DNA of 64,000 nucleotides from an uncultured Verrucomicrobiota bacterium (GTDB taxonomy: Bacteria; Verrucomicrobiota; CALLYA01; CAYNBQ01), in contig CAYNBQ010000002.1 of NCBI GenBank assembly GCA_964395275.1, positions 16,731 through 80,730 on the forward strand, given 5' to 3'. The notes beneath the pieces are model-generated. The model was not told the DNA's origin. It worked only from the letters and a program-made list of their open reading frames with translations, and made no database searches. Of this stretch, positions 11,688-41,274 are shown one piece after another. The stretch's first letter is position 1. Each line of letters starts with the position of its first letter. The translations under genes and the position numbers were made by a program.

Positions 11688-12650
11688 CTACCCGTTCTGC
11701 GACGGCGGGCGATGCTTCAGAAACCAGTCGCAGGTCCGACGCAAGCCCTCGTCGAAGGAGGTCGAGGCCTCGAATCCGAAGCGTTCCCGGGCCCGGGTGA
11801 CGTCGAGACATCGGCGCGGCTGCCCGTTGGGTTTGTCCCGGTCCCATTCGATGCTCCCTTCGAACCCGGTCAGTTCCCGGATCGTTTCCGCCAGATCCCG
11901 GATCGAGATCTCCATTCCCGAGCCGAGGTTCACCGGTTCCGCTTCGTCGTATCGTTCCGCGGCCAGCAGGAGGCCCTCGGCGCAGTCCTCCACGTAGAGA
12001 AACTCGCGCGTCGGACTCCCGTCGCCCCAGAGAACCACCGAATCGCGGCCTTCTTCGCGGGCTTCGACGAACTTGCGGATCATCGCCGGAATGACGTGGC
12101 TCGTTTCCAGATCGAAGTTGTCCCGCGGTCCGTAGAGATTCACCGGCAGCAGGTAGATCGCGTTCATCCCGTACTGCCGGCGGTAGCTCTGCGCCAGCAC
12201 GAGAAGCATCTTCTTCGCCAGGCCGTAGGGGGCGTTCGTCTCCTCGGGATACCCCTTCCAGAGATCTTCCTCGCGGAAGGGCACCGGCGTGAATTTCGGA
12301 TAGGCGCAGATCGTCCCGACCAGGACCACCTTCTCCACCCCCGTCCGGCGGGCCGCCTCGATCAGGTGCACCCCCATCTCCAGGTTGTCGTGCGCGAACA
12401 ACCCCGGGTTCTCCCGGTTCGCCCCGATTCCGCCGACCCGCGCCGCTAGGTGAAAAACGATCTGCGGACGGGTCTCCTCGAAGAGACGAAACGTCGCCTC
12501 CTGGGAGGTCAGGTCCCATTCCCGGCTTCGAGGGACCAGCACGTCCCGGGCGCCCCGTTTGCGCAGTCCCTCCACCAGATGCGATCCGAGAAACCCGGAT
12601 CCGCCCGTGACCATCACGCGCAAGTCGCCCCAGCCGTTCCGCATCTTCAT
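11688..12650 (-). CDS. fcl: GDP-L-fucose synthase (GDP-4-keto-6-deoxy-D-mannose 3,5-epimerase/4-reductase)
   Basis: C-terminal 320 aa of ORF 11688..13025 from [25 protein letters not shown]. Fcl family (...[15 protein letters not shown]...PYGLAKK). ATGA overlap with the gmd stop. Confidence 0.85.
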
Positions 12651-13726: not shown

Positions 13727-13797
13727 GATCGATCGACCATTCTCTCCGAATCCGGGTCGCGCGGACCCGCGAGACAAAGCTACCGCACGCACGGAAG

Positions 13798-13825
13798 ATC
13801 GGGGCTGCCGCGCAACCCCCGATCG
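13798..13825. other. Inverted repeat (gatcgggg...ccccgatc, 8-bp stem, 12-nt loop) in the ~400-bp gap between the wzc-like stop and the gmd start
   Basis: Seen directly. It sits about 70 nt upstream of the gmd start, next to a GCGGTAG ops-like heptamer on the coding strand. Confidence 0.25.
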
Positions 13826-14123
13826 CCCGCTTCATTTCTCACCATGCCGATTCCGTCCGGAGGCCTGCGGACGAACCCGTTCCAGGCCGTCCTGCCGCAA
13901 TCCGGCTCCTTCAACCGCCCTCCCGGACCGGGGTTCCCCGCCAGGAGGAACCGAGAATAACAGTCGCCGCACAGGCCGTCGCCAGTCAACCGGAATCCCC
14001 CTTTCCCCCCGCCGCCCGGAGAACCGCCTACCGGAGAACGCTTTCGTCCGGAGGGATGATCCGCAATCGCCGGTCGCGACATCACGTTTCCGGCGGGTCG
14101 CTCCCGGCAAACGCCCCGGGACC

Positions 14124-16409: not shown

Positions 16410-16553
16410 CGCCGGCACGACTCCGTCCAGGGCGTCGCCTCGATTCTCACTCACTCCCGCAACTCCTTCGCGACCTCTCGATCCGCGTTTCCGCCGACCC
16501 CGATCCACCCGGCCGGCGCATGCGCCGGCCCGGGGAAAACCGCCGGCGAACCC

Positions 16554-19449: not shown

Positions 19450-19494
19450 CGCGCCGCTTCCTCCCGATCCGGCCGATCCGAACCGTCCGTCGCA

Positions 19495-20553
19495 TCACGT
19501 CGCCTCCGGCACGGGGGTTTCCCAGACGCGCAGCCCCATGCGGCTCAGGTAGATGGGAATGCTCTGGAAGAGGGGGTTTTCCTCCTTGATCCGCGAGATC
19601 ATGGCGCGTTTCGAGGCGGCCTCCGGACCGCAGAGGATGGAAACGGATCCGCCGTCTCCTCCGGCGCCGTTGACCTTCCATCCCACGGCGCCGTGTTCGC
19701 GGGCGATCTCGATGATCCTGTGCGCGTCGGCGCTGACCAGGTCCGGATGCAGATTCGCCTGCGCCTCGGTGTTCTCGATCATCGACTTCCCCAAGGCCAG
19801 GAAGTCTCCCGTCAACAGCGCGTCCTTCGCCTTGTCCGCCGTCCGCCTCAGCGCCTCCAGGCGGGGAGCGTCCGGTCCCTCCCCTTCCAGATCCCGGATG
19901 ACCTTCTCGTGGACCTTCGAAGAACTGTGCGCCTTGCCCGCGAAAATCAGCACCAGCCGCCGCTCGAGTTCCCACCAGATCGAGTTCGGCACATGAAGCT
20001 GCGAAACGACCGCCTGAGGATAACGCTCGATCTCGATGTAGCAGATCCCCCCGTAGGCCGAACAGAGTTGATCCTGGACTCCGCACTGCTGCTTGAGTTT
20101 CTCCGTCTCGATGGCGTGCGCCGTGCGGGCCACCTGGTGGGGCGTCATCGTCCCCGGCGTCAGCCGGTCCAGCGCCCCGATCAGGGCGACCGTGACCGCC
20201 GCCGACGTCCCGGTCGAGCAGCCTCCCGGCGCCTCGGAATAGATGTTGACCTCGATGGCCAGGTCTTCCGGCACGCCCATCATCTCGATCGCGGCCTCCA
20301 GCAGGGGGTGCTTGTCGTAGATGCCCGGTTCCTCCATGCCGACGACGAATCGTTCCCCGTAGTTCTCGGCGTGAACCACCACCCGTTCGCGGCTTCCGTC
20401 GTTCGGAAAGACCTTCATCTGGACCTCCGCATACGGATAGACCGCGATGTTGAAGATCCTTCCCCTCTCCGCGAACCAGGTGTCGGTCCAGCCCCCGTTG
20501 TCGCAGATCCTCATGGGCGCCACGGTGTTGACGATGCGAATCGGACTGCTCAT
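19495..20553 (-). CDS. GHMP-family sugar kinase (HddA / D-glycero-D-manno-heptose 7-phosphate kinase-like)
   Basis: ORF 19495..20553. APMRICDNGGWTDT and APGGCSTGTSAAVTVALIGAL are GHMP ATP-binding motifs. Confidence 0.75.
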   Translation of the reverse strand: MSSPIRIVNTVAPMRICDNGGWTDTWFAERGRIFNIAVYPYAEVQMKVFPNDGSRERVVVHAENYGERFVVGMEEPGIYDKHPLLEAAIEMMGVPEDLAIEVNIYSEAPGGCSTGTSAAVTVALIGALDRLTPGTMTPHQVARTAHAIETEKLKQQCGVQDQLCSAYGGICYIEIERYPQAVVSQLHVPNSIWWELERRLVLIFAGKAHSSSKVHEKVIRDLEGEGPDAPRLEALRRTADKAKDALLTGDFLALGKSMIENTEAQANLHPDLVSADAHRIIEIAREHGAVGWKVNGAGGDGGSVSILCGPEAASKRAMISRIKEENPLFQSIPIYLSRMGLRVWETPVPEAT

Positions 20554-23235: not shown

Positions 23236-23940
23236 CTACCCGCGCCGGCGGCGGAACAGGGCCAGGCCCGCAACGCCCAGAAGCGCCATCGTGGCCGGTT
23301 CCGGAACGTTCGAGACGCCCGGCGTATCGACCGCGTCGGCCGAGGCCGGATCGAACTCGCCGATCCGCCAGGCCGAGAAATCGGCGCCGTTCGACAGGCG
23401 ATACGCGTGGGCCGGCACGTAGCTTCCGTCCGGTCCCAGGGCGTCCGCGTAGTACTTGTCTCCCGTATCGACCGTTTCGATCAGGGAGATGGCGTCGATG
23501 ACGTCCGCCCACGGCGTCACGTCCAGCACGCCGTCGTCGTCCGTGTCGAGATCGTCCCCGTTGCTCCCCGCAAACTCCGAAACGAGCATGTGGGTCACGT
23601 TGTCGCTGTTCTCGAAGTTGATGCTCGTGGTGAGATCCACCTGGGCGGGAGCCAGGCTGAACGTGCTCTCGGCCGCGAGGAAGAATCCGTCGCTCGGAAT
23701 CGACAGACCCGCCAGACCGATCACCGCTTCGATCACACCGCTGCCGCCCGAGCCGTCTCCGATGACCAGGTAGGTCAGGTCATCCAGCGAGTCGCCCGGC
23801 GTACCCGCGATTTCGAAGTACTCGTCGTTGTCCGTTCCCGCCTGGTCGATCCGGATCTCGTTGATCTGGATCGCCGCGGGGGCGGAAACCGCGATCGCAA
23901 CGACCAGCAGTGCCATGAGCGTGAGATGCCTTTTCATCAT
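23236..23940 (-). CDS. Secreted lamin-tail-domain (LTD) protein with C-terminal PEP-CTERM sorting signal
   Basis: ORF 23236..23940. Signal peptide, LTD-like IQINEIRIDQAGTDNDEYFEIAG, and C-terminus VPEPATMALLGVAGLALFRRRRG (PEP motif, TM helix, Arg cluster). Confidence 0.75.
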   Translation of the reverse strand: MMKRHLTLMALLVVAIAVSAPAAIQINEIRIDQAGTDNDEYFEIAGTPGDSLDDLTYLVIGDGSGGSGVIEAVIGLAGLSIPSDGFFLAAESTFSLAPAQVDLTTSINFENSDNVTHMLVSEFAGSNGDDLDTDDDGVLDVTPWADVIDAISLIETVDTGDKYYADALGPDGSYVPAHAYRLSNGADFSAWRIGEFDPASADAVDTPGVSNVPEPATMALLGVAGLALFRRRRG

Positions 23941-24896: not shown

Positions 24897-25433
24897 ATGA
24901 TATCGACCCCGCAAATCCCCGACGGCGACGACGCCCGGCCCCGAATCGACCCGGGGTCCGACGAACGCCTCATGCGACGGGCGCTCCTCCTGGCCGCCGA
25001 GGCCGGAGAAGACGGCGAGGTCCCCGTCGGCGCCGTGATCTGGCGCGAGGGGCGGATTCTCGCGTCCGCCCACAACCAGGTGGAACGGTTGCAGGACGCC
25101 ACCGCCCACGCGGAAATCCTCGCCCTCACCCAGGCCTCCGCGGCCCTGGGCGACTGGAGGCTGGAGGACTGCATCCTGGTCGTCACCAAGGAGCCCTGCG
25201 CGATGTGCGCGGGGGCGATCGTGAAGGCCCGGATCCGACGTCTCGTCTACGGCGCGCCCGATCCCCGAGAGGGGGGCGCCACCGTCTTTGGAATCTTCGA
25301 CTGGCCGGGGATGAACCACCGGGTCGAAGTCCGGGGAGGGGTTCTCGCGGAGGAGTGCGCCGAACTGCTCCGGACCTTCTTCCGCAACCGGCGCAGGGAG
25401 CCCGGATCCCCGGAACCGCGTATCGAACCGTGA
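24897..25433 (+). CDS. tadA: tRNA adenosine(34) deaminase
   Basis: ORF 24774..25433, trimmed to ATG 24897. HAEILAL...TKEPCAMCAGAI is the CDA zinc-binding motif. Confidence 0.75.
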   Translation: MISTPQIPDGDDARPRIDPGSDERLMRRALLLAAEAGEDGEVPVGAVIWREGRILASAHNQVERLQDATAHAEILALTQASAALGDWRLEDCILVVTKEPCAMCAGAIVKARIRRLVYGAPDPREGGATVFGIFDWPGMNHRVEVRGGVLAEECAELLRTFFRNRRREPGSPEPRIEP

Positions 25434-25522: not shown

Positions 25523-26608
25523 ATGTCCGATCCGTCCCGTCCCCCGCCCCCTCCGGTTCGAAGTCCCGCGCCGACGCCGGCCGCTCCCCCGCCGCGACGC
25601 CGGCGCAGCGGATGCCTGCTGACGATGCTGCTGGTTCTTCTTCTCATCAGCCTGGGAGTCAACCTGCTTCTCTCCGGGGATCGGATCGCCGGACAGAGTT
25701 GGAAGGTTCCCGTTCTCCGCGGGCGGGACCTGACCGAGGAGACCATCGAAGGCGATCCGGAGGCGACCGCGAAGATCGCCGTCATCCCCGTCAGCGGCAT
25801 CATCCGCGGCGCCCTTCTCGACGGCCGGGATTCGGCGGCCTGGGTCTGCCGCCAGATCCAGCGGGCGATGGACGACGACGATGTCGTGGGAATTCTCCTC
25901 GAGGTCGACACGCCGGGGGGCGAGGTCGCCGCGTCGGACATGATCTACGACCAGCTCCGGCGCGCCGCGGAGAAGAAGAAGGTTCTGGCCTGGATGGGAT
26001 CGCTCGCCACTTCGGGCGGCTACTATGTCTCGGCCGCCTGCGACGAAATCATGGCGATGCCGATGACGTCGACGGGAAGCATCGGCGTGATCCTCGTGCT
26101 CTTTCGATACGGCGAACTCATGAACAAGATCGGCGTCCAGCCCCGGATCTTCGCCGCGGGGCGGTACAAGGATCTCTTCAGCGGATTACGCGAAGAGGAT
26201 TTCTCGGAAGAAGAAAAGGCCATCATCCGGAGCCGGGTGCAGGTTGCGTACGACCGTTTCGTCGAGATCGTCGCCGAGGCGCGCGGACTCCCGGAAGAAA
26301 CCCTCCGGGAAGACATCGCCGACGGCAGGATCTTCTCGGCCGAGGAGGCCCGGGAGATGCAACTGATCGATGCGATCGGCTATCGGGAAGACGCCGTCGA
26401 ACGCCTTCGGAAACTCGCGGGGGCGCCGGATGCGCGGCTGATTCGTTACGATCGGGGGTTCTCGATCCGCAACCTGCTGCATGCCGCGGGCGGAGGCTCG
26501 ACCGTTCGCGTGGAACTGGGGGCCGGCTGCGGATTCGCCCTGCGGCCGGGCGCACTCTACTACCTGCCCCTGGAAACCGCCCGCGCCGCCTGGATCGAGC
26601 CGGAATAA
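25523..26608 (+). CDS. sppA: Signal peptide peptidase SppA (S49, 36K type)
   Basis: Frame of ORF 24821..26608 from ATG 25523, with AAGGAG RBS at 25510-25515. N-terminal TM, then VDTPGGEVAASDMIYDQL...GSLATSGGYYVSAACD. Confidence 0.8.
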   Translation: MSDPSRPPPPPVRSPAPTPAAPPPRRRRSGCLLTMLLVLLLISLGVNLLLSGDRIAGQSWKVPVLRGRDLTEETIEGDPEATAKIAVIPVSGIIRGALLDGRDSAAWVCRQIQRAMDDDDVVGILLEVDTPGGEVAASDMIYDQLRRAAEKKKVLAWMGSLATSGGYYVSAACDEIMAMPMTSTGSIGVILVLFRYGELMNKIGVQPRIFAAGRYKDLFSGLREEDFSEEEKAIIRSRVQVAYDRFVEIVAEARGLPEETLREDIADGRIFSAEEAREMQLIDAIGYREDAVERLRKLAGAPDARLIRYDRGFSIRNLLHAAGGGSTVRVELGAGCGFALRPGALYYLPLETARAAWIEPE

Positions 26609-26684: not shown

Positions 26685-27665
26685 ATGACGATGATTCGAC
26701 AGGACGAGAGAGCCTGGGCGCTGCCGGCCGCGCTGGTCGCGCTCGCCCTGGTGACGACGATCGCCGTGGAATGGCACCGGATCGCGCGTTCCGAGGTCGA
26801 CGCGTCGTCCCGCCTTCTCGAAAGGGTGCAGATCCGCTGGGCGCTCGACGCCGTTCGTCCGGGCGTCGTCCTGGCCCTCGCGTCGGATCCGACCCCGGGA
26901 GCGGACGGTCCCGACGATCCCTGGCTTCAGACCCCGGAGGACCCCGTTTTCCTCGGCGGCGTCGCGCTGCGTCTCTCCCTCCACGCCGAGGACGACCGCT
27001 GGGACATGAACAACCTCGGATTCCAACCGGACGATCCCGCCGTGCGACCCCCCGCCCGATGCTGGCGGGATCTGAAGACGTTGCTCGGATGGAATCGTTC
27101 CGACGGCATGGCGTCCGCCGTGATCGACTGGATCGATCCGGACGGAAAGGGCGCCTCGGAGAACGGCTGGTACCTGGATCTTCCCGAACCGCGTCTCTGC
27201 AAGAACCGCCCTCTGGATCTTCTCTCGGAACTCCTCCGCGTGCGCAGTTTCGCGCCGATCCTGCTCCGGGGCGGCGTCGATCCGGCAACCGGCCGGGAGA
27301 TTCTCCCCCTGGACCGGGTGGCCACCGTCCTGCCGCGTCTCCGAACGGGAACGGCGGCGCCGGTCAACGTCAACCTCGCGTCCGAAGACCTCCTGCGGGG
27401 TCTCGTGGGACTCGACCGCCTGCGGGCGGCCGACCGGATCCTGCGGCGGCGCGAGGCGGCGCCTTTTCTCGCCGAAGAGGATCTGCGCCAGACCCTGGGG
27501 CCCGCGATCTGGGATTCCCTCTCGCCCTGGATCTCGGTGGGAAGCGAATGGATCCGGGTGGAGGCCGTCGCCGATCTCCACGGCGCCCGGCGCCGGCTCA
27601 CGGCGCTGGTCCACCGGCCCGGGGGCGGTGCGCCGGTTTTCCGGAGATGGTGGGTGCACGGATGA
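26685..27665 (+). CDS. gspK: Type II secretion system minor pseudopilin GspK
   Basis: ORF 26481..27665, trimmed; candidate ATGs at 26679, 26685 and 26691. N-terminal TM AWALPAALVALALV, GspK-specific SAVIDWIDPDGKG motif and PVNVNLASEDLLRGLVGL HhH-like motif. Confidence 0.7.
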   Translation: MTMIRQDERAWALPAALVALALVTTIAVEWHRIARSEVDASSRLLERVQIRWALDAVRPGVVLALASDPTPGADGPDDPWLQTPEDPVFLGGVALRLSLHAEDDRWDMNNLGFQPDDPAVRPPARCWRDLKTLLGWNRSDGMASAVIDWIDPDGKGASENGWYLDLPEPRLCKNRPLDLLSELLRVRSFAPILLRGGVDPATGREILPLDRVATVLPRLRTGTAAPVNVNLASEDLLRGLVGLDRLRAADRILRRREAAPFLAEEDLRQTLGPAIWDSLSPWISVGSEWIRVEAVADLHGARRRLTALVHRPGGGAPVFRRWWVHG

Positions 27666-29074
27666 AGCGCAGGATCGTCACCTTGCACGCGCGCCGGTAC
27701 CTCGAAAGCCGCCGGGCCGCCGCCGTCGCCGTCTTCGAAGACGCCGTCGAATTCGCGGTCGCCGAGAAGGGCGAACGGATCCGGAAATCGGGCCGCCTGG
27801 AAGGCCCGACCGACGAGGTCTCCGCGGCAGGCCGTCTGCAGCGCGCCTTTGCGGCGATCGCGGAATTCCAGCCGCCCCTGGTCGTCGGCGTGATGCCGGC
27901 CCACCATGTGCCGCTGCGGCGGTTGACCCCGCCTTTCCGGGACGCGAAACGCCTGGCGCGAACCCTCGATTCCCTCCTGGAAATCCATCTTCCCTTCGAC
28001 CTGGATGCCGTCAAGACCGATCACATCCTCGTGACCCGCGGCAACCGCGTCGAAGGAGACGTCCTGTCGATCGCGTGCCCGGCCGATCCGGCGCGGCGGA
28101 CGGCGGCCCGCATCGCCGCCCAGGGAGAGGCCCCGTCCATTCTGGATCACGAGCTCGTCGCCCTTTTCAACTACGCCCGATTCCGCGGCGTTCCCGCGGG
28201 GATCTGGTCCGTCGTCCGGGTCGGGAAGACCCGTTGCGCATGGGTCTTCGGTGAAGACGACCGCCTCCTCGGGGGCCGCGCCCTGCTTCTGGAAGATCCG
28301 GAGGGCCTTCCGGCGGAATGGGAACGCAGCCGGCTCGCGATCCCCGAGACCCGGAGCTGGCAGGCGACGGACGAAACGGTCCGTCTCCTCGGGGATCCCG
28401 GGGGACTCGATCCCTGCGCCCGCGCCATGCGGGAAACCCTGGGATTCCTGCCCGCCGTGATGAACCCGCCCGCCGAGGAATCGGTCGCGGCCGTCGCGTG
28501 CGGCGCGGCGCTGCGGGGGACCGGACGGGGGATCGCCGTCGATCTTCTGCCGACTCCGCCGCAGGCCCGCCCGGCGTTCCGGCCGATCCGGCAGGCGATA
28601 TGGGCAACGGCGGCCGCGGCCCTCTTCGTCCTGTTGATCCCCGTCGTCGGATCCCTGGGGAGAGGCGCCCTGGCCGTGCCCCGCCTGCGGGCCGTGAACC
28701 GCGCCCTCCTCGAGACCGCGCAACGCGCGGGCGTTCCCTCGCCACCCCCGGCCCAGGAGGTCTACGCCCTGCGCCGGGCCCTCGACGGGGCCCTCCGGCG
28801 ATCCGAATTGTATGCGCCCCTGGACGCGCCCCCGGTTTCGGATCGGCTCGACCGGCTCGTCACCGCCCTGCCGCGGAACGTCCGGATCGAACGGATCTCC
28901 CTGGCGCCCCGCCGCGTCGTTCTCCGGGCTGCACCGGCCGATCCCGCAGCGGCCCCCGCCTACGCGGACGCCCTGCGGCGCGCCTTCGATTCGGTTTCGA
29001 TCAAGACCCTGCCGGGATCCGGCGCCCTCGCCCGGTTCGAGATCGTCGTCGGCCGGGAGGTTCCGGCCCCATGA
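27662..29074 (+). CDS. gspL: GspL-like type II secretion/T4P assembly protein (cytoplasmic actin-like domain - TM - periplasmic domain)
   Basis: Frame of ORF 26771..29074 from ATG 27662 (ATGA overlap with gspK stop). About 310 aa cytoplasmic domain, single TM IWATAAAALFVLLIPVVG, and a 130-aa periplasmic domain. Confidence 0.6.
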   Translation: MKRRIVTLHARRYLESRRAAAVAVFEDAVEFAVAEKGERIRKSGRLEGPTDEVSAAGRLQRAFAAIAEFQPPLVVGVMPAHHVPLRRLTPPFRDAKRLARTLDSLLEIHLPFDLDAVKTDHILVTRGNRVEGDVLSIACPADPARRTAARIAAQGEAPSILDHELVALFNYARFRGVPAGIWSVVRVGKTRCAWVFGEDDRLLGGRALLLEDPEGLPAEWERSRLAIPETRSWQATDETVRLLGDPGGLDPCARAMRETLGFLPAVMNPPAEESVAAVACGAALRGTGRGIAVDLLPTPPQARPAFRPIRQAIWATAAAALFVLLIPVVGSLGRGALAVPRLRAVNRALLETAQRAGVPSPPPAQEVYALRRALDGALRRSELYAPLDAPPVSDRLDRLVTALPRNVRIERISLAPRRVVLRAAPADPAAAPAYADALRRAFDSVSIKTLPGSGALARFEIVVGREVPAP

Positions 29075-29598
29075 ACATGTCGATTCGCACCGCCGGAGGA
29101 CGGGCGATTCTGGTCGCCGCGGTCGTTCTGATCGGAGCGATCCTTTCCGTCCGCGCGGTGGAACGGCGTCTCGACCGCGTCCGCACGGCCCTGGTCGAAC
29201 GGAGCCGGGACCTGGAGGAGGCGCGGCGGCTTGCCGGCGAAATCCTGGACGTCAACGGGCTCGAAGAGGCGGTCGTGCGGTCGGCGCGCGCCCTGCCCGC
29301 AGGATACAATCCCGCGGCCCGGCTCCGGTCGATTCTGCGGGAGCGCATCGGCAGCCCCGTCCCCGAGGAGGGCGTTCAATCGACCGGCAGCGAGCGCCTT
29401 CCCTCCGGCATCCTGCGCGAATCGCTGCGGGTCGAAATCCGGTCCATCCCCCTCGAACAGGCCCTCGGGATCTTCTATGATCTCGACCGGCTCGACGCCC
29501 CGATCGGCGTACAGCGCCTCGAGTTGACCGCGGGCGACGAACCGCCCCGATTCGATCTGGTTCTCGAAATCGTGGCCTTCGTTCCGCCCGCTTCCTGA
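29071..29598 (+). CDS. gspM: GspM-like type II secretion protein
   Basis: Frame of ORF 28318..29598 from ATG 29071 (ATGA overlap). MNMSIRTAGGRAILVAAVVLIGAIL is an N-terminal TM, followed by a periplasmic domain. Size and position match GspM. Confidence 0.55.
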   Translation: MNMSIRTAGGRAILVAAVVLIGAILSVRAVERRLDRVRTALVERSRDLEEARRLAGEILDVNGLEEAVVRSARALPAGYNPAARLRSILRERIGSPVPEEGVQSTGSERLPSGILRESLRVEIRSIPLEQALGIFYDLDRLDAPIGVQRLELTAGDEPPRFDLVLEIVAFVPPAS

Positions 29599-29610
29599 AT
29601 CGCAGAAGAC

Positions 29611-30396
29611 ATGTTTTCCACCCTACGAGAAATCGCCCGCCGCCGGGAGATGCTGAGCACCCTGATCGTTCGGCATCTGAAGATCCGCTACAAGAACAGC
29701 ACGCTCGGGTTCCTCTGGACGGTGCTGAACCCGATCTTCATGGCGATCATCTACTGGTTCTTCATCAGCAAGGTCGCCCGGGCCCCGGTGCCGATCGGCG
29801 CGCTGCTCGTCGGCGTCTTCGCATGGAACTACACGGTCATGTCCGTCATGGATTCCACGGGGGCGGTGATCGGCAATGCCAACCTCGTGAAGAAGGTCGC
29901 CTTCCCGCGCGAAATCCTCCCCCTGTCGGTTTCGATCGCGGGACTGATCAACTTCCTCCTGTCGCAGATCGTCGTCCTGCTTTTTCTGCTGGCGACCCGC
30001 ACGGCGCCCAGTCCCTGGGTCGTCCTCTTCCCGTTCATCGTGCTGGCGCATTTCTGTCTCTGCCTCGGGCTGTCGTTCATCGTCTCGTGCGCCAACGTCT
30101 ATTTCCGGGACACCGAGCACCTGGTGGGGGTTCTCCTCTCGGCCTGGTTCTTCATGAGCCCGGTGATGTACGCGATCGACCAGGTGAAGGGCCTGCCCCG
30201 ACCGTGGTTCTTCATCTACTGCATGAACCCGGTTGCGGGAATCGTGAGCGCCTATCGCGCGGTTCTCCTGCCCGGAAAGACCCTGCCGCCCGATCCTGTG
30301 CCCTGGGCCGTTTCGTTCGCCCTCTGCGGGGCGATCCTTCTCGCCGGATACGCGATCTTCCGCCGCGCCCAGGCGAACTTCGGAGACGTCCTCTGA
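29611..30396 (+). CDS. wzm: ABC-2 type polysaccharide exporter permease (Wzm/KpsM), second copy
   Basis: ORF 29611..30396. Wzm signature (LIVRHLKIRYKNSTLGFLWTVLNP...) with 6 TM helices. Confidence 0.85.
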   Translation: MFSTLREIARRREMLSTLIVRHLKIRYKNSTLGFLWTVLNPIFMAIIYWFFISKVARAPVPIGALLVGVFAWNYTVMSVMDSTGAVIGNANLVKKVAFPREILPLSVSIAGLINFLLSQIVVLLFLLATRTAPSPWVVLFPFIVLAHFCLCLGLSFIVSCANVYFRDTEHLVGVLLSAWFFMSPVMYAIDQVKGLPRPWFFIYCMNPVAGIVSAYRAVLLPGKTLPPDPVPWAVSFALCGAILLAGYAIFRRAQANFGDVL

Positions 30397-31628
30397 TGTC
30401 CACGGCGATCGAAGTCGAGAACCTCGGCAAACTCTACCGGATCCAGGGCCGCACCGTTCCCACCCTGAAAACGACCGTCATCGACCGCCTGCGGCGCCGC
30501 GCCCGCAAACCCTTCTGGGCCCTGCGGCACGTGACATTCCGCGTCCCGAAGGGAATCACCTTCGGGGTCATCGGGGCGAACGGTTCCGGCAAGAGCACGT
30601 TGCTCGGCCTGATCGCCGGGACCCTGACCCCCACGGAGGGGTCCATACGCGCCGAGGGGAAGATCTCGACGCTGCTCGAACTCGGCGCGGGATTCCACCC
30701 GGAACTCACCGGACGGGAGAACGTCTTCCTGAACGCCGCGATCCTCGGGATCCCCCGCGAAGAGATCCGCAAACGCTTCGACCGCATCGTGGAGTTTTCG
30801 GGGCTCTCGGAGTTCATCGACACCCCGGTCAAGTTCTATTCATCCGGCATGTACGTGCGCCTCGGCTTCGCCGTCGCCATCGAGATGGATCCGGACATCC
30901 TGCTGATCGACGAGGTCCTGGCCGTCGGCGACGAATCGTTCCAGATGAAGTGTCTCGACAAGATCCAGCAGTTCCAGAGGGAAGGCAGGACGCTGCTGAT
31001 CGTCTCCCACTCCATGCCGGTCATCGAGGACGTCTGCGACGAGGTCATCCTCCTGGATCACGGGCACAAGGAAAACCAGGGAAAAGCCGGAGAGGTCGTC
31101 GCCGAATACCTCCGGATCACCCTCGGGCGCGACAGCCATCTCAACATCGAGGAACACGGCAGCCGCGACGTCGAGATGGTGTCGGTCCGGTTCGAGGACG
31201 GCGCCGGCCGAGAGACCCGGCAGTTCGAGGACGGCGGCGCGATGCGCGTGCGGATCCGCTACCGGGCCCGACGCCGGGTGGAACGTCCCGTCTTCGGCTT
31301 TTCCGTCAAACGGGCCGACGGAACCCACATGTTCGGCACGAACACCCAGCTGATGAACGTCCCCATTCCCGCCGTCGAGGGCGCCGGAGAGGTCGTCCTC
31401 GATCTTTCTCCGCTGCATCTCCTGCGGGGCGGATACTATCTCTCGCTGTCGATCCATTCCTGGGATCACTCGATCCAGTACCATCGCCGGGAAGACTGGT
31501 ATTCCTTCAGCGTTCGGAACCGGTCCGGAGACGAGGGATTCGTCCGAATCCCCTGCCGCTGGGAATGGCGGCCCGACCGCGGCGGGGAACCGCCGCCGCA
31601 GGAAGAGGAAGAAGACCATCATGAGTGA
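30396..31628 (+). CDS. wzt: Polysaccharide ABC exporter ATP-binding protein (Wzt/KpsT) with C-terminal carbohydrate-binding domain, second copy
   Basis: Frame of ORF 29823..31628 from ATG 30396 (TGATG overlap). Walker A GANGSGKST, YSSGM, Walker B LLIDEVLAVGD, and a C-terminal extension. Confidence 0.85.
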   Translation: MSTAIEVENLGKLYRIQGRTVPTLKTTVIDRLRRRARKPFWALRHVTFRVPKGITFGVIGANGSGKSTLLGLIAGTLTPTEGSIRAEGKISTLLELGAGFHPELTGRENVFLNAAILGIPREEIRKRFDRIVEFSGLSEFIDTPVKFYSSGMYVRLGFAVAIEMDPDILLIDEVLAVGDESFQMKCLDKIQQFQREGRTLLIVSHSMPVIEDVCDEVILLDHGHKENQGKAGEVVAEYLRITLGRDSHLNIEEHGSRDVEMVSVRFEDGAGRETRQFEDGGAMRVRIRYRARRRVERPVFGFSVKRADGTHMFGTNTQLMNVPIPAVEGAGEVVLDLSPLHLLRGGYYLSLSIHSWDHSIQYHRREDWYSFSVRNRSGDEGFVRIPCRWEWRPDRGGEPPPQEEEEDHHE

Positions 31629-32085
31629 ACCTTTCGAGATCCGGGCGGACGGCGTCGATGTGCAGGCGATCATGGAAGAGATCCGGCGCACCGTGGAACG
31701 AAAGCGCGCCGAGGGGGTTTACGACGACGACCGGATCGCGCGGGCGGAGCGGATGAATTTCCAGGAGCTGAAGGACGAGGATTCCTTCTTCGATTTCTAC
31801 ATGTCCAGCCTTCACCACGTCCACCTGGTCGACATCAACGATTTCCCGATCCGCACCCACCGCGGGATCTTCGGAAAACCGATCGTCCTGCTGAAGAAGA
31901 CGATCTGGAAACTGCTGCGCTTCTACACGTACCGCATGTTTTCCCAGCAGAATCAGATCAACGGCCAGGTCATCAACGCCCTGGACGGACTGAACCGCAA
32001 GCTCAACCGGCGCACGGCCGAAATCGAGGCGCGCATCGCCCGCCTCGAAGAACGCCTGGGAACCGACGGCGAACCCGATGAGTGA
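31621..32085 (+). CDS. Hypothetical protein (coiled-coil C-terminus) coupled to the wzt and glycosyltransferase genes
   Basis: ORF 31621..32085. 8-nt overlaps at both ends (ATGAGTGA). Ordinary amino-acid composition; C-terminal RRTAEIEARIARLEERL. Confidence 0.5.
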   Translation: MSEPFEIRADGVDVQAIMEEIRRTVERKRAEGVYDDDRIARAERMNFQELKDEDSFFDFYMSSLHHVHLVDINDFPIRTHRGIFGKPIVLLKKTIWKLLRFYTYRMFSQQNQINGQVINALDGLNRKLNRRTAEIEARIARLEERLGTDGEPDE

Positions 32086-33268
32086 ACCGCGCCGACTCGC
32101 CTTCGTCACGCCGCGTTACGCGGACCGGCGCGCCGTCGGAGGCGCCGAAACCGCCGTGCGCCTCCTGGCCGAACATGCGGCCGCGCGGGGTCATTCCGTC
32201 GAACTGCTCACGACCTGCGCGGTGGACCACGTCACCTGGAAGAACGAACGCCGGCCCGGCAGCGTCCGGCGCAACGGGATCACCGTCCGTTTCTTCCCGA
32301 CCCGCGTGGACCGGGACCTGTCGACCTATCTCCGGATCCAGAGAAAGATCGACCTGGGCCTGGAACTGACCGACGAGGAGGAAGAGACCTGGATCGGCGA
32401 AAGCGTCCACAGCGACGACCTCTACGCCTACCTCCGCCGGAACCTCGACCGTTTCGACGCCTTTCTCTTCGCGCCCTATCTCTTCGGCACCACGATGCGG
32501 GGCGTGACGCTGACGGGAAGGAAGAGCGTCCTGATCCCCTGTCTGCACGACGAACCGTTCGCCCGCTTGCGCATCACCCGGCGGCTTTTCGAAGAGGCCG
32601 GATGGGTGATGTTCCATACCCGTCCGGAACGCGAACTCGCCGAACGGATCTGCGGCGCCGACCCGGCCCGGGCGTCCGTCGTCGGAATCGGGTTCGACCC
32701 CTTCCCGGCCGACGGACCGCGGTTCCGAAAGCAGTACGCGATCGACGGCCCCCTGATGCTCTACTGCGGCCGGCGCGAGGGCGGCAAGAACGTCCCCCTG
32801 CTCATCGATTATTTCACCACATGGGCCGAACGCAACGACGGCGATACGCGCCTGGCGCTCGCGGGATCCGGCGCCGTGGCGATTCCCTCGAACATGGCGG
32901 GCCGGATCATCGACCTGGATTACCTCCAGGAACAGGAGAAGCGCGACGCCATGGCCGCCGCGGACGTTCTCGTCCAGCCCTCGGTCAACGAGAGCCTCAG
33001 CATCGTCCTGATGGAAGGCTGGCTGGCGGGAACCGCCGCCCTCGTTCACGCCGGCTGCGCCGTCACCCGGGACCACTGCATCCGTTCGAACGGGGGACTC
33101 TTCTTCGCCGACTATCCCGAGTTCGAGGAATGCGCCAACCGGCTGATCGGCGATCCGGCCCTTCGCGAAGCCCTTGCGCGCGGCGGGCAACGCTACGTCC
33201 GCGAGGAATACTCCTGGGACCGCGTGATGGACCGGTTCGAGGAATCCCTGGAGGCCCGGGACGTCTGA
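32078..33268 (+). CDS. Glycosyltransferase family 4
   Basis: ORF 32078..33268. GT-B fold with VQPSVNESLSIVLMEGWLAGTAALV, the E-x7-E motif. Confidence 0.8.
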   Translation: MSEPRRLAFVTPRYADRRAVGGAETAVRLLAEHAAARGHSVELLTTCAVDHVTWKNERRPGSVRRNGITVRFFPTRVDRDLSTYLRIQRKIDLGLELTDEEEETWIGESVHSDDLYAYLRRNLDRFDAFLFAPYLFGTTMRGVTLTGRKSVLIPCLHDEPFARLRITRRLFEEAGWVMFHTRPERELAERICGADPARASVVGIGFDPFPADGPRFRKQYAIDGPLMLYCGRREGGKNVPLLIDYFTTWAERNDGDTRLALAGSGAVAIPSNMAGRIIDLDYLQEQEKRDAMAAADVLVQPSVNESLSIVLMEGWLAGTAALVHAGCAVTRDHCIRSNGGLFFADYPEFEECANRLIGDPALREALARGGQRYVREEYSWDRVMDRFEESLEARDV

Positions 33269-34347
33269 TGGGAATTCGCGCCATTCACCAGGTGCTCGCG
33301 GGCTTCGCCTACGGCGACGCCCAGTCGAACGAGGCCCTCGTCCTGCAAAGGATCTTCCGGGACTGGGGGTTGCAGAGCGAGATCCTCTGCGAACGGTCCC
33401 GGATCCTGCCCAGCGTGGCCCGCCTCGCCCGGCCGCTGGAGGCCTACCGTCCGGAGGATCCCGCCCGGGAAGCCCTTCTGCTGCATTTCGCCATCGGTTC
33501 GCCGGCCAACCGCTGGTTCGCCCGGCATCGCGGGCCGAAGATCCTCCTCTATCACAACATCACCCCCGCGTCCTACCTGCGCGGAATCAACGAGGAGATC
33601 GCGCGTCTTCTCGAGGAAGGGCGGGCCGACCTCGCCGGCCTCCGCGGCGTTCCCGACGTCGTTCTGGCCGACAGCGGCTACAACGCCCGCGAACTCGACG
33701 AGCTCGGGTACCGCGACGTCCGCGTCTTCCCCCTGGCGATCGACCTCGCCGCCTTCGATCGCCGCCCCGATCCGTCCGTCCGGAGGGATTTCCCCCCCGA
33801 CCGGATCATCTGGCTCTTCGTCGGACGCGTGGTTCCCAACAAGCGGCACGACGATCTCCTGCGGGCCTTCGCCGCCTACCACCACCATGTGCGTCCCGAT
33901 TCCCGCCTGGTGATCGTCGGCTCGGCCGGCGGCACCGAGATCTATCTCGCGATCCTGCGGGCCTACGCCCAGCGCCTCGAAATCGCCGAAGACATCCATT
34001 TTCTCGGCAGCATCCCCTTCTCCGAACTCGTCGCGCACTACCGGATCGCCGACGTCTTCGTCTGCATGAGCGAACACGAGGGCTTCGGCGGCCCTCTGAT
34101 CGAATCGATGTACCTGGACCTCCCCGTCATCGCGCGGGCGGCGGCGGCGGTTCCGGAAACGATGGGCGACGCCGGGATCCTGCTGAAGGATCCCGATCCC
34201 TTCTACACGGCCGAGATCGCGGAACGACTCGTCGCGGACTCGGATCTGCGCCGGGGGGTTCTGGAACGACAACGCCGGCGGGTCCGCGATCTCCTGGACC
34301 GGGATATCGCGTCCGAGATCCGGGGGCATCTCGCTGCGATCCTGTAG
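33268..34347 (+). CDS. Glycosyltransferase family 4
   Basis: Frame of ORF 32602..34347 from ATG 33268 (TGATG overlap). VCMSEHEGFGGPLIESMYLDLPVIA is the GT4 motif. Confidence 0.8.
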   Translation: MGIRAIHQVLAGFAYGDAQSNEALVLQRIFRDWGLQSEILCERSRILPSVARLARPLEAYRPEDPAREALLLHFAIGSPANRWFARHRGPKILLYHNITPASYLRGINEEIARLLEEGRADLAGLRGVPDVVLADSGYNARELDELGYRDVRVFPLAIDLAAFDRRPDPSVRRDFPPDRIIWLFVGRVVPNKRHDDLLRAFAAYHHHVRPDSRLVIVGSAGGTEIYLAILRAYAQRLEIAEDIHFLGSIPFSELVAHYRIADVFVCMSEHEGFGGPLIESMYLDLPVIARAAAAVPETMGDAGILLKDPDPFYTAEIAERLVADSDLRRGVLERQRRRVRDLLDRDIASEIRGHLAAIL

Positions 34348-34505: not shown

Positions 34506-35195
34506 GTGAAGCTCTCGATCATCGTGCCCGTACTGAACGAAGAGGCCACGTTGCGCACGCTTCTGGAACGGGTGAACGCCGTCGAATTGCCCCTGGAAAA
34601 GGAGATCATCGTCGTCGACGACGGATCGACCGACCGAACCGCCGAAATCGCCGAGGAAGCCGCACGTTCGCTTCCCGTCCGCATCATCCGGCATCCGGAA
34701 AACCGCGGAAAGGGAGCGGCCGTGCGCACCGGGTTCGCCGAAATGACCGGGGATTTCGTCGTCATCCAGGACGCGGACCTCGAATACGATCCGGCCGAAT
34801 ACGTCCAGCTCATGCGGCCGCTGATCGACGGGGTCGCCGACGCCGTCTACGGGGCCCGCTTCCTTGGCGGCCCGCATCGGGTCCTCTATTTCTGGCACTA
34901 CGTCGGCAACCGGTTCCTGACGCTGGTCACCAACGCGCTTTTCAACATCAACCTCAACGACATGGAGACCTGCTACAAGGCCATGCGGACCGACATGGCC
35001 CGGCGGCTGCGATTGAAGTGTTCCCGGTTCGGCATCGAACCGGAAATCACCGCCCAGCTGGTCAAGAAGGGCGCCCGGATCTACGAGACCCCGATCTCCT
35101 ACTACGGCCGGACCTACGAGGAGGGGAAAAAGATCCGCTGGCACGACGCGCTCTCGGCCCTGGGCGTTCTCATCCGCGAACGATTTACGGCTTGA
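34506..35195 (+). CDS. Glycosyltransferase family 2 (polyprenol-phosphate glycosyltransferase, DPM1/GtrB-like, soluble)
   Basis: ORF 34506..35195 with GTG start. LSIIVPVLNEE...VVDDGSTDRT...IQDADLEYDP. Confidence 0.8.
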   Translation: MKLSIIVPVLNEEATLRTLLERVNAVELPLEKEIIVVDDGSTDRTAEIAEEAARSLPVRIIRHPENRGKGAAVRTGFAEMTGDFVVIQDADLEYDPAEYVQLMRPLIDGVADAVYGARFLGGPHRVLYFWHYVGNRFLTLVTNALFNINLNDMETCYKAMRTDMARRLRLKCSRFGIEPEITAQLVKKGARIYETPISYYGRTYEEGKKIRWHDALSALGVLIRERFTA

Positions 35196-35299
35196 TTCCC
35201 GCCGGCGCTTCGTCAGCATACGGGCCTTTCGACCGGGTCGGCGGCCGCGATCCGGGATCGGAAATCTTTCGAACGCCCCTTTTGCCCGAGGAGAAGAAC

Positions 35300-36583
35300 A
35301 TGGCGAAAAGCATCGAGAAGGTCGGCGTCGTCGGGCTCGGATACGTCGGGCTGCCCCTGGCCGTGGCCTTCGCCCGCCACATGCCCGTGGTCGGCTTCGA
35401 CATCAGCGAAAAACGCGTCGCGCAGCTCCGCGCCGGGGAGGACCTCACCGGGGAAACCTCCGCGGACGACCTGCGCAATCCGAACCTTTTCCTCACCTCC
35501 GAGGCGTCCCGCCTGCGCGGATGCGACGCGATCATCGTGGCCGTGCCGACGCCCGTCACGCGGGCGCGGGAACCCGATCTGACCGCCCTTCGTTCCGCCA
35601 CCGAGATCGTGGCGCGGCAGATCACCCCGGGCACCGTCGTCGCCTACGAGAGCACGGTCTACCCCGGCGTCACCGAGCGCATCTGCCTGCCGATCCTCGA
35701 GGAGAAATCCGGCCTGAAACTCGGCCAATTCCATCTGGGCTACTCGCCGGAACGGATCAACCCGGGCGACCGCGAACACACCGTCGACCGGGTCGTCAAG
35801 GTCGTTTCCGCATCCGATCCGGAAACGCTCGAAACGCTGGCCGAACTCTACGGCAAGGTCGCCAAGGCCGGCGTACACAAGGCCCCGAACATCATGACCG
35901 CCGAGGCGGCCAAGGTGATCGAGAACATCCAGCGCGACCTGAACATCGCCCTGATGAACGAGTTGTCCATGATCTTCCGGCTCCTCGGGATCCGGACCCG
36001 CGACGTCCTCGACGCGGCGGCGACCAAGTGGAATTTCCACCGGTACACGCCGGGGCTCGTCGGCGGCCATTGCATCGGCGTCGATCCCTATTACCTGACC
36101 TATCGATCCCTGGAACTCGGACATCATCCCCGGGTCATTCTCTCCGGGCGGGACGTCAACGACGGCATGGGACGTTACGTGGCGGATCTGACCCTGAAAC
36201 GCCTCAGCGAGGCCGGCAAGGTCCTGAGCCGCAGCACCGCCTACGTCATGGGGCTCACCTTCAAGGAGAACGTTCCGGACATGCGCAATTCGCGCGTCGT
36301 CGACGTCATCGGCCGGCTGCGGGAGTTCGGGGTCGACGTCGTGGGCTGGGATCCCCTGCTCGCCGACGAGGACGTCCGATCCGAATTCGGGATCGAGAAC
36401 GTGCCGCTCGAGAAGATCCGGAAGTTCGACGTCGCCGTGGTCTCGTGTCCGCACGACGCCTTTCGTTCGATCGACCTGGAAACCCTGGCGCAACGCATGC
36501 AGCCCCCCGTTCTGATCGACATCAAGGGGCTCTACGACCCCGACGACGCGATCCGCGCCGGTTTCCTCTACGAATGCCTCTAG
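35300..36583 (+). CDS. UDP-N-acetylhexosamine 6-dehydrogenase (nucleotide-sugar dehydrogenase, WbpA/TviB/WecC-like)
   Basis: Frame of ORF 34382..36583 from ATG 35300, with GAGGAG RBS at 35288-35293. VGVVGLGYVGLPLAVAF is a Rossmann motif; GGHCIGVDPYYL has the catalytic Cys. Confidence 0.85.
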   Translation: MAKSIEKVGVVGLGYVGLPLAVAFARHMPVVGFDISEKRVAQLRAGEDLTGETSADDLRNPNLFLTSEASRLRGCDAIIVAVPTPVTRAREPDLTALRSATEIVARQITPGTVVAYESTVYPGVTERICLPILEEKSGLKLGQFHLGYSPERINPGDREHTVDRVVKVVSASDPETLETLAELYGKVAKAGVHKAPNIMTAEAAKVIENIQRDLNIALMNELSMIFRLLGIRTRDVLDAAATKWNFHRYTPGLVGGHCIGVDPYYLTYRSLELGHHPRVILSGRDVNDGMGRYVADLTLKRLSEAGKVLSRSTAYVMGLTFKENVPDMRNSRVVDVIGRLREFGVDVVGWDPLLADEDVRSEFGIENVPLEKIRKFDVAVVSCPHDAFRSIDLETLAQRMQPPVLIDIKGLYDPDDAIRAGFLYECL

Positions 36584-36650: not shown

Positions 36651-36959
36651 ATGAAGACGGACCAACCCATCCGCGGCGCCGAAGGCGGCGTCCTTCTCGA
36701 CGTCCGGCTCGTTCCGCGCGCGAGAAGGGACGAGGTCGAGGGGATCTACGGCGACAGCCTCAAGATCCGCGTGGCCGCCCCTCCCGTCGAGGGACGCGCG
36801 AACGAGGCCCTGCTCCGTTTCCTGGGCAGGAAACTCGGCGTGTCCCGGTCCCGTTTCGAGATCCGCAGGGGACGCACCTCCCGCCGCAAGCTCGTCTGGA
36901 TCGACGGCGTCGACGAGGAGGCCGTGCGTCGCGCCCTGGGCCTCGCACAGCGGGGCTGA
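36651..36959 (+). CDS. DUF167 (YggU) family protein
   Basis: ORF 36651..36959. LLDVRLVPRARRDEVEGIYGDSLKIRVAAPPVEGRANEAL is a YggU signature. Confidence 0.7.
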   Translation: MKTDQPIRGAEGGVLLDVRLVPRARRDEVEGIYGDSLKIRVAAPPVEGRANEALLRFLGRKLGVSRSRFEIRRGRTSRRKLVWIDGVDEEAVRRALGLAQRG

Positions 36960-41257: not shown

Positions 41258-41274
41258 CGGCTCTTCTCCCGGAC

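Follow-up and report, generated by a model that had tools for sequence, protein, structure and literature searches.

Conserved linkage of gspK and divergent gspL- and gspM-like genes to a Wzm-Wzt exporter in an uncultured Verrucomicrobiota bacterium and related lineages

In the canonical type II secretion system (T2SS), GspL and GspM together connect the periplasmic assembly with the ATPase and platform, and in proteobacteria such as Klebsiella (Pul) and Vibrio (Eps) the system is encoded by a gspC-O operon. Here we analyzed a 64,000-nucleotide (nt) stretch, hereafter the window, from an uncultured Verrucomicrobiota bacterium (GenBank assembly GCA_964395275.1, contig CAYNBQ010000002.1). In the window, gspK (K) is followed by genes for a GspL-like protein (L) and a GspM-like protein (M), and then by wzm and wzt, which encode the permease and ATPase of an ATP-binding cassette (ABC) polysaccharide exporter. 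T2SS components and this type of glycan exporter are both known; we found no description of a conserved operonic junction between them in the papers searched.

Standard models recognize the chlamydial T2SS incompletely. Denise et al. (2019) classed it as 'generic', apparently without minor pilins and GspLM, and in their neighborhood analysis no further protein consistently accompanied any of the type IV filament systems (PMC6668835). The description of Kiritimatiella glycovorans notes only that a T2SS is present (PMC5148204). Elsewhere, the ABC-transporter-like pilG/H/I genes of Myxococcus are counted among the type IVa pilus (T4aP) genes (PMC6060248), and in cyanobacteria type IV pilus activity is coupled to polysaccharide secretion (PMC9239167). 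Our literature search on T2SS, GspL or Wzt together with Verrucomicrobia or Kiritimatiella found no report of a K-L-M-wzm-wzt association. Kiritimatiellia and related bacteria play a major part in degrading sulfated polysaccharides, and many of their sulfatases are predicted to be exported (PMC5148204), so how their secretion systems are built and regulated bears on carbon turnover.

A conserved junction between gspK-L-M and wzm-wzt

Gene identities, gene spacing and the conservation of the unit are shown by the analysis. As the window has a GC content of 67%, raw lists of open reading frames (ORFs) consist mostly of spurious frames; genes were called by codon-position GC (GC3 frames) and a codon-usage log-odds model, and both analyses back the frames of the genes from gspK to the GT4 glycosyltransferases (Table 1). 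Direct reading of the sequence bore out the two ATGA overlaps given in the initial annotation, one between the gspK stop (TGA, 27663-27665) and the L start (ATG at 27662), the other between the L stop (29072-29074) and the M start (ATG at 29071). The M stop (29596-29598) is followed by a 12-nt spacer, ATCGCAGAAGAC, and then by the wzm ATG at 29611, the same gap that had been described. Overlaps continue downstream, of 1 nt between wzm and wzt (TGATG at 30396), 8 nt between wzt and hyp154, 8 nt between hyp154 and the first GT4 gene, and 1 nt between the two GT4 genes. Together with the Pfam and NCBIfam identities, these overlaps sustain the unbroken run proposed earlier, from wzm-wzt through a hypothetical gene, two GT4 genes and a GT2 gene to a UDP-sugar dehydrogenase gene.

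A terminator or promoter splitting gspM from wzm had been named as evidence against such a run. The terminator scan found no terminator-like site in the M-wzm interval, such sites being at chance level between 24 and 37.5 kb (9 observed, 7.2 expected), and a promoter scan of sigma-70-like type returned 0 sites. The plus-strand gene run extends from tadA through the DUF167 gene, at about 24.97 to 36.96 kb. As stated in the initial annotation, no gspG, gspH, gspI or gspJ precedes gspK, the upstream genes being tadA and sppA. The latter lies directly 5' of gspK with a gap of 70 nt. The gspK start at 26685 fits the length of the 326-amino-acid (aa) NCBI-derived protein, and a second in-frame ATG lies at 26679.

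Conservation of the junction among relatives proved much broader than expected. A scan of genome contigs seeded with a four-sequence alignment of L recovered 62 loci, whereas the window L sequence alone recovered none (loci from all scans are designated here by L and a three-digit number). By submitters' labels these loci come mostly from Kiritimatiellia, Verrucomicrobiota and Lentisphaerae/Victivallales, with Hydrogenedentes in addition. The relative L002 (41-47% identical) is collinear with the window from a PALP gene through DUF167, in the order tadA, sppA, (LacI), K, L, M, wzm, wzt, hypothetical gene, three GT4 genes, GT2, UDP-glucose dehydrogenase and DUF167, and its M and wzm genes overlap by 4 nt. 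The position of tadA is the same in L002, and the order sppA-K-L is kept in L001 and L002. Two insertions distinguish L002 from the window: a gene for a LacI-family regulator (7897-8958) separates sppA from gspK, and one with an ASD1 domain stands between the PEP-CTERM and HAD genes.

We considered that the junction might reflect mere macro-synteny with L002 and dropped this idea because distant loci show the five-gene core with unrelated flanks. Among the 39 L-anchored loci that are GTDB species representatives with at least 1.5 kb downstream, wzm-wzt directly follows M in 14, and 4 more cases lie on shorter or atypical loci; in the distant linked loci, L is at most 34% identical to the window protein, over part of its length only. 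A reverse scan of metagenomes anchored on Wzm gave 80 loci, 11 of them too short and 69 informative, with M directly upstream (plus L and K where the contig reaches) in 37/69 and absent from that position in 32/69. In total, the K-L-M-wzm-wzt unit was found at 57 loci, which fall into 44 Wzm clusters at 95% identity and 20 at 70%, and the Wzm proteins of linked loci have a median pairwise identity of 57%. Submitters' labels for the 57 loci are mostly Kiritimatiellia, Verrucomicrobiota and Lentisphaerae. The spacing from M to wzm at 56 junctions has a median of 12 nt, with 25 overlaps (23 of exactly 4 nt) and 13 intervals of 0-30 nt.

The flanks of the unit vary. In L052 (a 3.1-Mb Kiritimatiellae scaffold of 44% GC), the gene before it is divergent and the one after it convergent. 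Its neighbors in L058 are a coiled-coil gene on one side and a DDE transposase gene (11987-13117) on the other; an IAT_beta protein gene precedes it in L147. In L148, a Joint Genome Institute metagenome contig, the 5' genes are transcribed divergently (an unannotated 92-aa ORF nearest, then a 2-hydroxyacid dehydrogenase), and a D12 methylase and Cas9 are encoded downstream. Across linked loci, no conserved gene was found beyond wzt. The conserved element is thus the five genes K-L-M-wzm-wzt, without glycosyltransferases: the glycosyltransferase genes of the proposed operon are present in the window run and fall outside the conserved unit, which ends at wzt.

Two further features of the flanks were observed. 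In L052, genes for IS30-type transposases (6640-7554 and 15019-16035) flank the unit on either side at a distance of one or two genes; transposases beside the unit could hint at mobility of the block or could be incidental in genomes rich in insertion sequences. In L148, the Cas9 gene belongs to a type II CRISPR-Cas locus (Cas9, Cas1; 12957-16510) about 2.5 kb 3' of the unit.

Each half of the unit also occurs separately. K-L-M lacks wzm-wzt in 25/39 informative L-anchored loci (~64%), and a Wzm-Wzt orthologue lacks K-L-M in the 32 loci noted above (~46% of informative Wzm loci), an argument for regarding each half as self-sufficient. In a neighbor-joining tree of Wzm, K-L-M linkage spans most of the tree, on both sides of the midpoint root, and the unlinked loci group into three coherent clades that nest within linked ones; with long branches and no support values, such trees serve to show that linkage is scattered and not to count events. 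In one unlinked clade galE precedes wzm. Another keeps window-type hyp154 and the second GT4 gene (GT4b) after wzt, and the glycan cluster is therefore a self-standing module.

Neighbors other than wzm-wzt are fairly conserved as well, so part of the linkage signal is lineage synteny: a divergent tetratricopeptide repeat (TPR) gene lies upstream of K in 22 loci, a frequency similar to that of the wzm-wzt link. Genes recurring 5' of K in L028, L031, L045, L048, L049 and L058 encode a PAS histidine kinase and a sigma-54 response regulator, often with the divergent TPR gene. The same six loci encode a 575-aa polytopic membrane protein with a weak match to PMT_2 (GT-C glycosyltransferase; 1e-4, below the gathering threshold, GA).

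Secretion and glycan genes of the window

Profile hidden Markov models (HMMs), called for in the initial annotation, back the GspK assignment. The protein passes Pfam PF21687 T2SSK_1st (2e-8, 35.3 bits; GA 26.2) and aligns over its full length with NCBIfam NF037980 T2SS_GspK (1.6e-29; residues 14-323 of 328, profile positions 5-305 of 307), its score of 103.4 bits lying under the cutoff of 130. Its match to PF03934 T2SSK (0.0019, 18.9 bits) is under the GA of 24.2. The N-terminus, MTMIRQDERAWALPAALVALALVTTIAVEW, has a hydrophobic segment without Glu at position 5 and is predicted to form a prepilin-like helix. Most loci from the Planctomycetes-Verrucomicrobia-Chlamydiae (PVC) group encode a K of about 420-440 aa, compared with 326-328 aa in the window, and two or three tandem GspK-like genes lie 5' of L in L013 (7143-9893), L035 (6738-9781), L087 (1072-4115) and L042.

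Because neither L nor M has any Pfam or NCBIfam match, their identities needed other evidence. An exhaustive phmmer search with the window L returned 83 homologues of similar length, and among 59 aligned L homologues Pfam recognized PilM_2 in 36, T2SSL in 9, GspL_C in 6 and PilN in 6. A profile of the family matched the Protein Data Bank (PDB) sequences of PilM (2ych, 1.5e-30, positions 7-289) and PilN (3jc8_N, 7.6e-6, positions 308-449). The AlphaFold2 (AF2) model of L, with a predicted local distance difference test score (pLDDT) of 91.9, has strand/helix domains at 1-290, a long helix at 304-355 and a beta-beta-alpha-beta-beta arrangement at 407-464. These would correspond to a cytoplasmic actin-like domain of the PilM/GspL type, a single long transmembrane (TM) helix and a periplasmic ferredoxin-like domain of the PilN/GspL type. 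Foldseek matched the model to PilM (1e-14) and to the GspL cytoplasmic domain (4pht, 1yf5; ~1e-9 to 4e-10, target TM-score, TMt, 0.64-0.68). A single-chain PilM-TM-PilN protein is the architecture of GspL and not that of the T4aP. Family profiles, the AF2 model, Foldseek and synteny place L as a PilM-TM-PilN fusion with GspL architecture. Word-indexed homology searches with L and K found, besides the window's own proteins, only one relative, at 45% identity.

For M, a single-sequence phmmer search found only L002, L003 and L064, and a family HMM was required for more. The gene directly after L, which begins at the L stop codon in 45 loci, encodes a family of about 165 aa whose HMM matches the window M (E 1.6e-7); among 25 family members, T2SSM is matched by 3 (best 4e-5) and T2SSM_b by 2, and the family profile found no match among PDB sequences. 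The AF2 model of M (pLDDT 88.7) has helices at 4-73 and 81-93 followed by beta-beta-alpha-beta-beta, that is, a putative N-terminal TM helix, a coiled coil and a C-terminal ferredoxin-like domain (alpha-beta-beta-alpha-beta-beta). Foldseek matches of this model are weak, the best being PilO (3jc8_O, 2e-3; 2rjz, 1e-2, TMt 0.56), along with the PulM C-domain (8ab1, 8a9x; TMt 0.5-0.58). Profile, structure and synteny together indicate that M is probably a GspM/PilO-type protein. Aligning the M family with the gene after L in Hydrogenedentes by hhalign gave no significant score (E 0.07), so that orthology of M to this outgroup is at most putative; M orthology can be stated for L064 alone (7.9e-8). 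Akkermansia muciniphila Amuc_1100 (6kny, 6lad) stands among the weak structural neighbors of the M model, beside PilO and PulM, and the NCBIfam families of Amuc_1098 (secretin) and Amuc_1101 (PilM-like) weakly match the window GspD and the L027 L protein.

The HMM check of L and M had a mixed outcome: T2SSL and T2SSM returned no match, while profiles, structure and synteny supported a fusion of GspL architecture and a GspM/PilO-type protein. Reassignment of the three ORFs by HMM to families outside the T2SS had been proposed as a refutation, and that test is formally ambiguous, since L and M match nothing.

Pfam and NCBIfam matches confirmed gspD, gspE and gspF at 48.9-53.8 kb on the minus strand, about 20 kb from K-L-M, as first annotated. 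The best NCBIfam match of GspE is type_II_gspE (617 bits, cutoff 630), with PilB at 548. As the best scores are to GspD, GspE and GspF, and not to PilQ, PilB and PilC, the secretin, ATPase and platform of the window are of T2SS rather than type IV pilus type. In three Hydrogenedentes loci (L027, L029 and L051) and in L064, gspD-E-F is followed by four genes with canonical prepilin N-termini and then by K-L(-M), and K of L027 scores above the GspK equivalog cutoff (133.5 bits, cutoff 130). As orthologues thus sit in canonical gspDEFGHIJKLM operons in Hydrogenedentes, K-L(-M) are real T2SS parts. In PVC loci, K-L-M stands alone, with gspD/E/F more than 10 kb away where the flanks are long and canonical prepilin genes rarely adjacent; the separation of K-L-M from gspDEF is therefore normal for the group and no peculiarity of the window.

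Downstream of gspF on the same strand, after a gap of 317 nt, are three large genes lying 3 and 17 nt apart, which encode a 653-aa DUF6785+DUF6784 protein, a 1776-aa Peptidase_M28 protein with an FtsX-like permease region, and a 658-aa protein without a Pfam match; their products could be T2SS-associated or T2SS substrates. On the other side, gspD-E-F lies directly downstream of an lpxC/fabZ fusion and lpxA on the same strand. Both T2SS halves thus adjoin lipopolysaccharide genes, for lipid A synthesis on one side and the glycan ABC exporter on the other.

The window Wzm is 66-67% identical to that of the close relatives L002 and L003 and 38-49% identical to Wzm proteins encoded after M in other loci; the window Wzt is 78% identical to that of L002 and 53-58% to Wzt proteins of K-L-M-linked loci. 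The gene hyp154 follows wzt in L002, in the K-L-M-linked L144 and in loci with wzm-wzt unlinked to K-L-M, and its product matches the HMM of a family encoded directly 3' of wzt in loci without K-L-M (2e-35). As this HMM was contaminated by alternate-frame ORFs inside wzt, only matches located after wzt were counted. Family members were observed there in L067, L072, L108, L121, L132, L133, L144 and L145, with or without K-L-M upstream. Orthologues of GT4b also follow wzt in unlinked loci, L002 and L144, often further 3' than hyp154. We propose that hyp154 may be a dedicated partner of the Wzm-Wzt exporter. Judging by the GT4, GT4, GT2 and dehydrogenase genes next to it, the exporter is predicted to carry an undecaprenyl-linked polysaccharide.

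Outside these subjects, the window is dense in envelope-biogenesis genes. A second Wzm/Wzt pair, whose Wzt has a Wzt_C domain (2.8e-9), sits in a large minus-strand glycan cluster that also encodes a Wzz/GNVR P-loop (tyrosine-kinase-like) protein, a GHMP kinase/nucleotidyltransferase fusion and a further GHMP kinase; genes of a nucleotide-sugar (possibly CDP-sugar) pathway are apparent there from N-terminal motifs read by eye. This genome thus has at least 2 ABC-dependent glycan loci less than 30 kb apart. A gene for a small secreted protein with a C-terminal PEP-CTERM sorting motif (7e-7) has its equivalent in the same place in L002. Near the far end of the window, genes for two proteins without a Pfam match (509 and 472 aa) are followed by genes for MlaE, an ABC ATPase and MlaD.

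Table 1. Positions of the genes and gene groups in the window discussed in the text
Feature	Position	Strand	Evidence or remark
tadA-like tRNA adenosine deaminase	24972-25433	+	Pfam MafB19-deam 1e-35, dCMP_cyt_deam_1 2e-29; context, starts plus-strand run
sppA-like signal peptide peptidase (S49)	25625-26608	+	Pfam Peptidase_S49 1.8e-43; context
gspK, T2SS minor (tip) pseudopilin	26685-27665	+	HMM matches
gspL-like gene	27662-29074	+	470 aa; family profile, AF2, Foldseek
gspM-like gene	29071-29598	+	175 aa; family HMM, AF2, weak Foldseek
wzm, ABC-2 type polysaccharide exporter permease	29611-30396	+	PF01061 ABC2_membrane 2e-17, NF050109 Wzm/RfbD 2.6e-12
wzt, exporter ATPase with C-terminal Wzt_C carbohydrate-binding domain	30396-31628	+	PF00005 1.3e-19, PF14524 2.4e-29
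hyp154, conserved 154-aa hypothetical, coiled-coil C-terminus	31621-32085	+	no Pfam match
GT4 glycosyltransferase 1	32078-33268	+	Glyco_trans_1_4 / Glycos_transf_1
GT4 glycosyltransferase 2 (GT4b)	33268-34347	+	Glyco_trans_1_4 / Glycos_transf_1
GT2 glycosyltransferase	34506-35195	+	PF00535 7e-37
UDP-glucose/GDP-mannose dehydrogenase family enzyme	35282-36583	+	PF03721, PF00984, PF03720
DUF167 gene	36651-36959	+	
gspF	48888-50084	-	Pfam T2SSF 3.7e-52; best NCBIfam GspF 343 bits (cutoff 424), above PilC
gspE	50092-51783	-	Pfam T2SSE 2.8e-134 + MshEN
gspD	51788-53761	-	Secretin + 3x Secretin_N + GspD N0; passes TIGR02517 (418 bits, cutoff 351)
Three large genes after gspF	39281-48570	-	
lpxC/fabZ fusion and lpxA	53887-56027	-	
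Second Wzm/Wzt pair	9436-11644	-	
Other parts of the minus-strand glycan cluster	14124-16454; 17488-20553	-	
Small secreted PEP-CTERM protein	23236-23940	-	
Two proteins without Pfam match, MlaE, ABC ATPase, MlaD	57409-62933	+	

Explanations for the linkage

We consider it fairly probable that the T2SS of the window is split and that its K/L/M sub-operon shares a transcript with the genes of a glycan ABC exporter, so that two envelope machines are co-expressed. The source would be a high-GC bacterium of the PVC group, and the closest named relatives of L and M make Kiritimatiellia its most likely class. The T2SS would be encoded at several loci, with gspD-E-F (secretin, ATPase, platform) placed behind lpxC/fabZ-lpxA, and with the G-J pseudopilins, GspC and the prepilin peptidase encoded outside the window. 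GspK, at the pseudopilus tip, and the GspL/GspM-type pair would work with the GspDEF proteins encoded 20 kb away, and translational coupling by the 4-nt ATGA overlaps would set K/L/M stoichiometry. One polycistronic message would carry K, L, M, the 12-nt spacer, wzm-wzt, hyp154, GT4, GT4, GT2 and the UDP-sugar dehydrogenase gene, and the exporter would carry a lipid-linked glycan built by the products of the four last genes. In such a cell, K, L and M would continue to function with GspDEF as a T2SS, the exported material would be a glycan, and the link between the two would be co-expression and not membership in one machine.

Several observations weigh against this explanation. Six-frame scanning of the 64-kb window returned no pseudopilin-like ORF (GspG, GspH, GspI or GspJ) with the motif G[FM..][TS]L[..]E of prepilins, and no GspC or GspO is present among the annotated window genes, not every ORF having been scanned for these two. 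The window L itself matches neither T2SSL nor GspL_C, nor does M match T2SSM; in sequence and fold score L resembles PilM/PilN more closely than it does proteobacterial GspL, and the Foldseek matches of M have E values of 2e-3 or worse, with phage tail-terminator proteins interleaved with PilO and PulM. We infer co-transcription of K-L-M with wzm-wzt from spacing only, and the promoter scan that returned 0 sites covered the sigma-70-like type only. The taxon labels are those of the submitters of metagenome-assembled genomes, and the breadth across classes may be overstated. Finally, a five-gene block that persists with variable flanks at L identities of at most 34% and Wzm identities of about 45% is the pattern usually left by genes that interact functionally, and pure co-expression may understate the link between K-L-M and Wzm-Wzt.

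This last point leads to a direct functional coupling of the two halves, in which the Wzm-Wzt glycan is needed for the T2SS or the reverse, whether by periplasmic glycosylation of pseudopilins or substrates, by retention of secreted enzymes on a surface glycan, or by GspL/M acting as a scaffold for the ABC exporter. We regard such a putative coupling as possible and rather unlikely. It is supported by the block itself, kept at 57 loci with variable flanks and with M overlapping wzm at 25/56 junctions; the spread of linkage over most of the Wzm tree, with unlinked loci confined to three nested clades, suggests an old linkage with losses. The PMT_2-like GT-C glycosyltransferase encoded near K in several loci (weak, 1e-4, below GA) also speaks for coupling, and there are precedents tying type IV filament systems to ABC transporters (PMC6060248) or to polysaccharide (PMC9239167). 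Against coupling stand the ~64% of L-anchored loci without wzm-wzt and the ~46% of Wzm loci without K-L-M, from which it follows that the adjacency is dispensable, as well as the occurrence of the same K-L family in a plain T2SS operon in Hydrogenedentes and the similar conservation of another neighbor, the TPR gene in 22 loci, by which lineage synteny explains part of the signal.

The initial annotation had offered two alternatives, that the pseudopilins are encoded elsewhere or that the K/L/M module was recruited to a glycan export operon. The former is the better supported, by gspDEF 20 kb away and by orthologous K-L-M genes in canonical operons. The data neither demonstrate nor refute the latter; in its full form, for instance a secretin-dependent polysaccharide route fed by Wzm-Wzt, we judge it highly improbable. 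It would explain why pseudopilin genes are missing near K in the window and in most PVC loci and why K-L-M lies more than 10 kb from gspDEF in PVC loci with long flanks, but T2SS-type gspDEF genes are present in the same window, K keeps its GspK domains, L and M keep the assembly-platform architecture, and many loci have K-L-M without wzm-wzt. We know of no ABC-dependent glycan pathway that uses GspK/L/M, which also counts against full recruitment. That K/L/M belong instead to a type IV pilus or other type IV filament (PilM-N-O-like), or that L and M are unrelated membrane proteins, is very unlikely in our estimation, even though the lack of T2SSL and T2SSM matches and the best matches of L (PilM and PilN, in sequence and fold) and M (PilO, in fold) point that way. 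Their translationally coupled neighbor is GspK, a minor pseudopilin of T2SS type; the single-chain architecture of L is that of GspL; family members match T2SSL, GspL_C and T2SSM; and orthologues lie in gspDEFGHIJKLM order, with the window D, E and F scoring best as GspD, GspE and GspF. As for chance or genome-specific operon packing, some adjacency is to be expected in a window so rich in envelope genes (second wzm-wzt cluster, lpx, mla, PEP-CTERM), but the junction recurs with conserved tight spacing at 57 loci, which count as 44 distinct ones at the 95% level of Wzm identity and have unrelated flanks, and this makes chance hardly credible.

On the split T2SS that we favor, the GspL and GspM of this PVC lineage escape standard HMMs altogether, and automated tools would call its T2SS incomplete or 'generic'; the L and M family alignments provide handles for finding divergent GspL and GspM proteins. 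The presence of a five-gene operon in dozens of lineages ties protein secretion to surface-glycan export in a testable association. A functional partnership of GspK-L-M with Wzm-Wzt, conserved in Kiritimatiellia and related PVC bacteria, is only a tentative and somewhat doubtful proposal. If true, the T2SS platform and tip pseudopilin would be mechanistically tied to an ABC glycan exporter, a hybrid not described for any T2SS, through glycosylation of pseudopilins or secreted enzymes, through their anchoring to the glycan, or through a shared envelope-spanning export complex.

Comparison with known systems

Compared with the proteobacterial gspC-O operon of Klebsiella Pul or Vibrio Eps, the window genes are alike in that D, E, F and K are recognizable by HMMs, in the predicted domain layouts of L and M, in the K-L-M order and in translational coupling. 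They differ in that the system would be spread over at least 3 loci, with no G-J, C or O seen in 64 kb, in that L and M have diverged beyond the reach of the T2SSL and T2SSM HMMs, and in that K-L-M is joined to wzm-wzt and gspDEF lies behind lpxC/fabZ-lpxA. The chlamydial T2SS is similar as another PVC-group T2SS that standard models recognize incompletely; in contrast to it, divergent K, L and M are present here, at a separate locus.

The PilM-PilN-PilO proteins of the T4aP give the best sequence and fold matches for L (PilM, PilN) and the best fold match for M (PilO). However, PilM and PilN are separate proteins there, whereas L is predicted to combine them in one chain as in GspL, and the partner gene here is gspK, in place of pilP-pilQ, with D, E and F of T2SS type. 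The pilG/pilH/pilI genes of Myxococcus xanthus resemble the window in placing ABC-transporter genes beside type IV filament genes, a likeness by gene description, and differ in that the filament system is a T4aP there and a T2SS here. Wu and colleagues reportedly found in 1998 that these genes are required for pilus biogenesis; to our knowledge, no Wzt_C domain occurs in that system.

O-antigen loci are typically hypervariable. With the Wzm-Wzt exporter of the Escherichia coli O9a type, the locus described here shares the ABC-2 permease and the Wzt_C ATPase, followed in the window by glycosyltransferase genes and a nucleotide-sugar dehydrogenase gene. Unlike that exporter, its Wzt is conserved at 53-58% identity across many lineages, several genomes have no adjacent glycosyltransferases, and wzm-wzt is preceded by T2SS genes.

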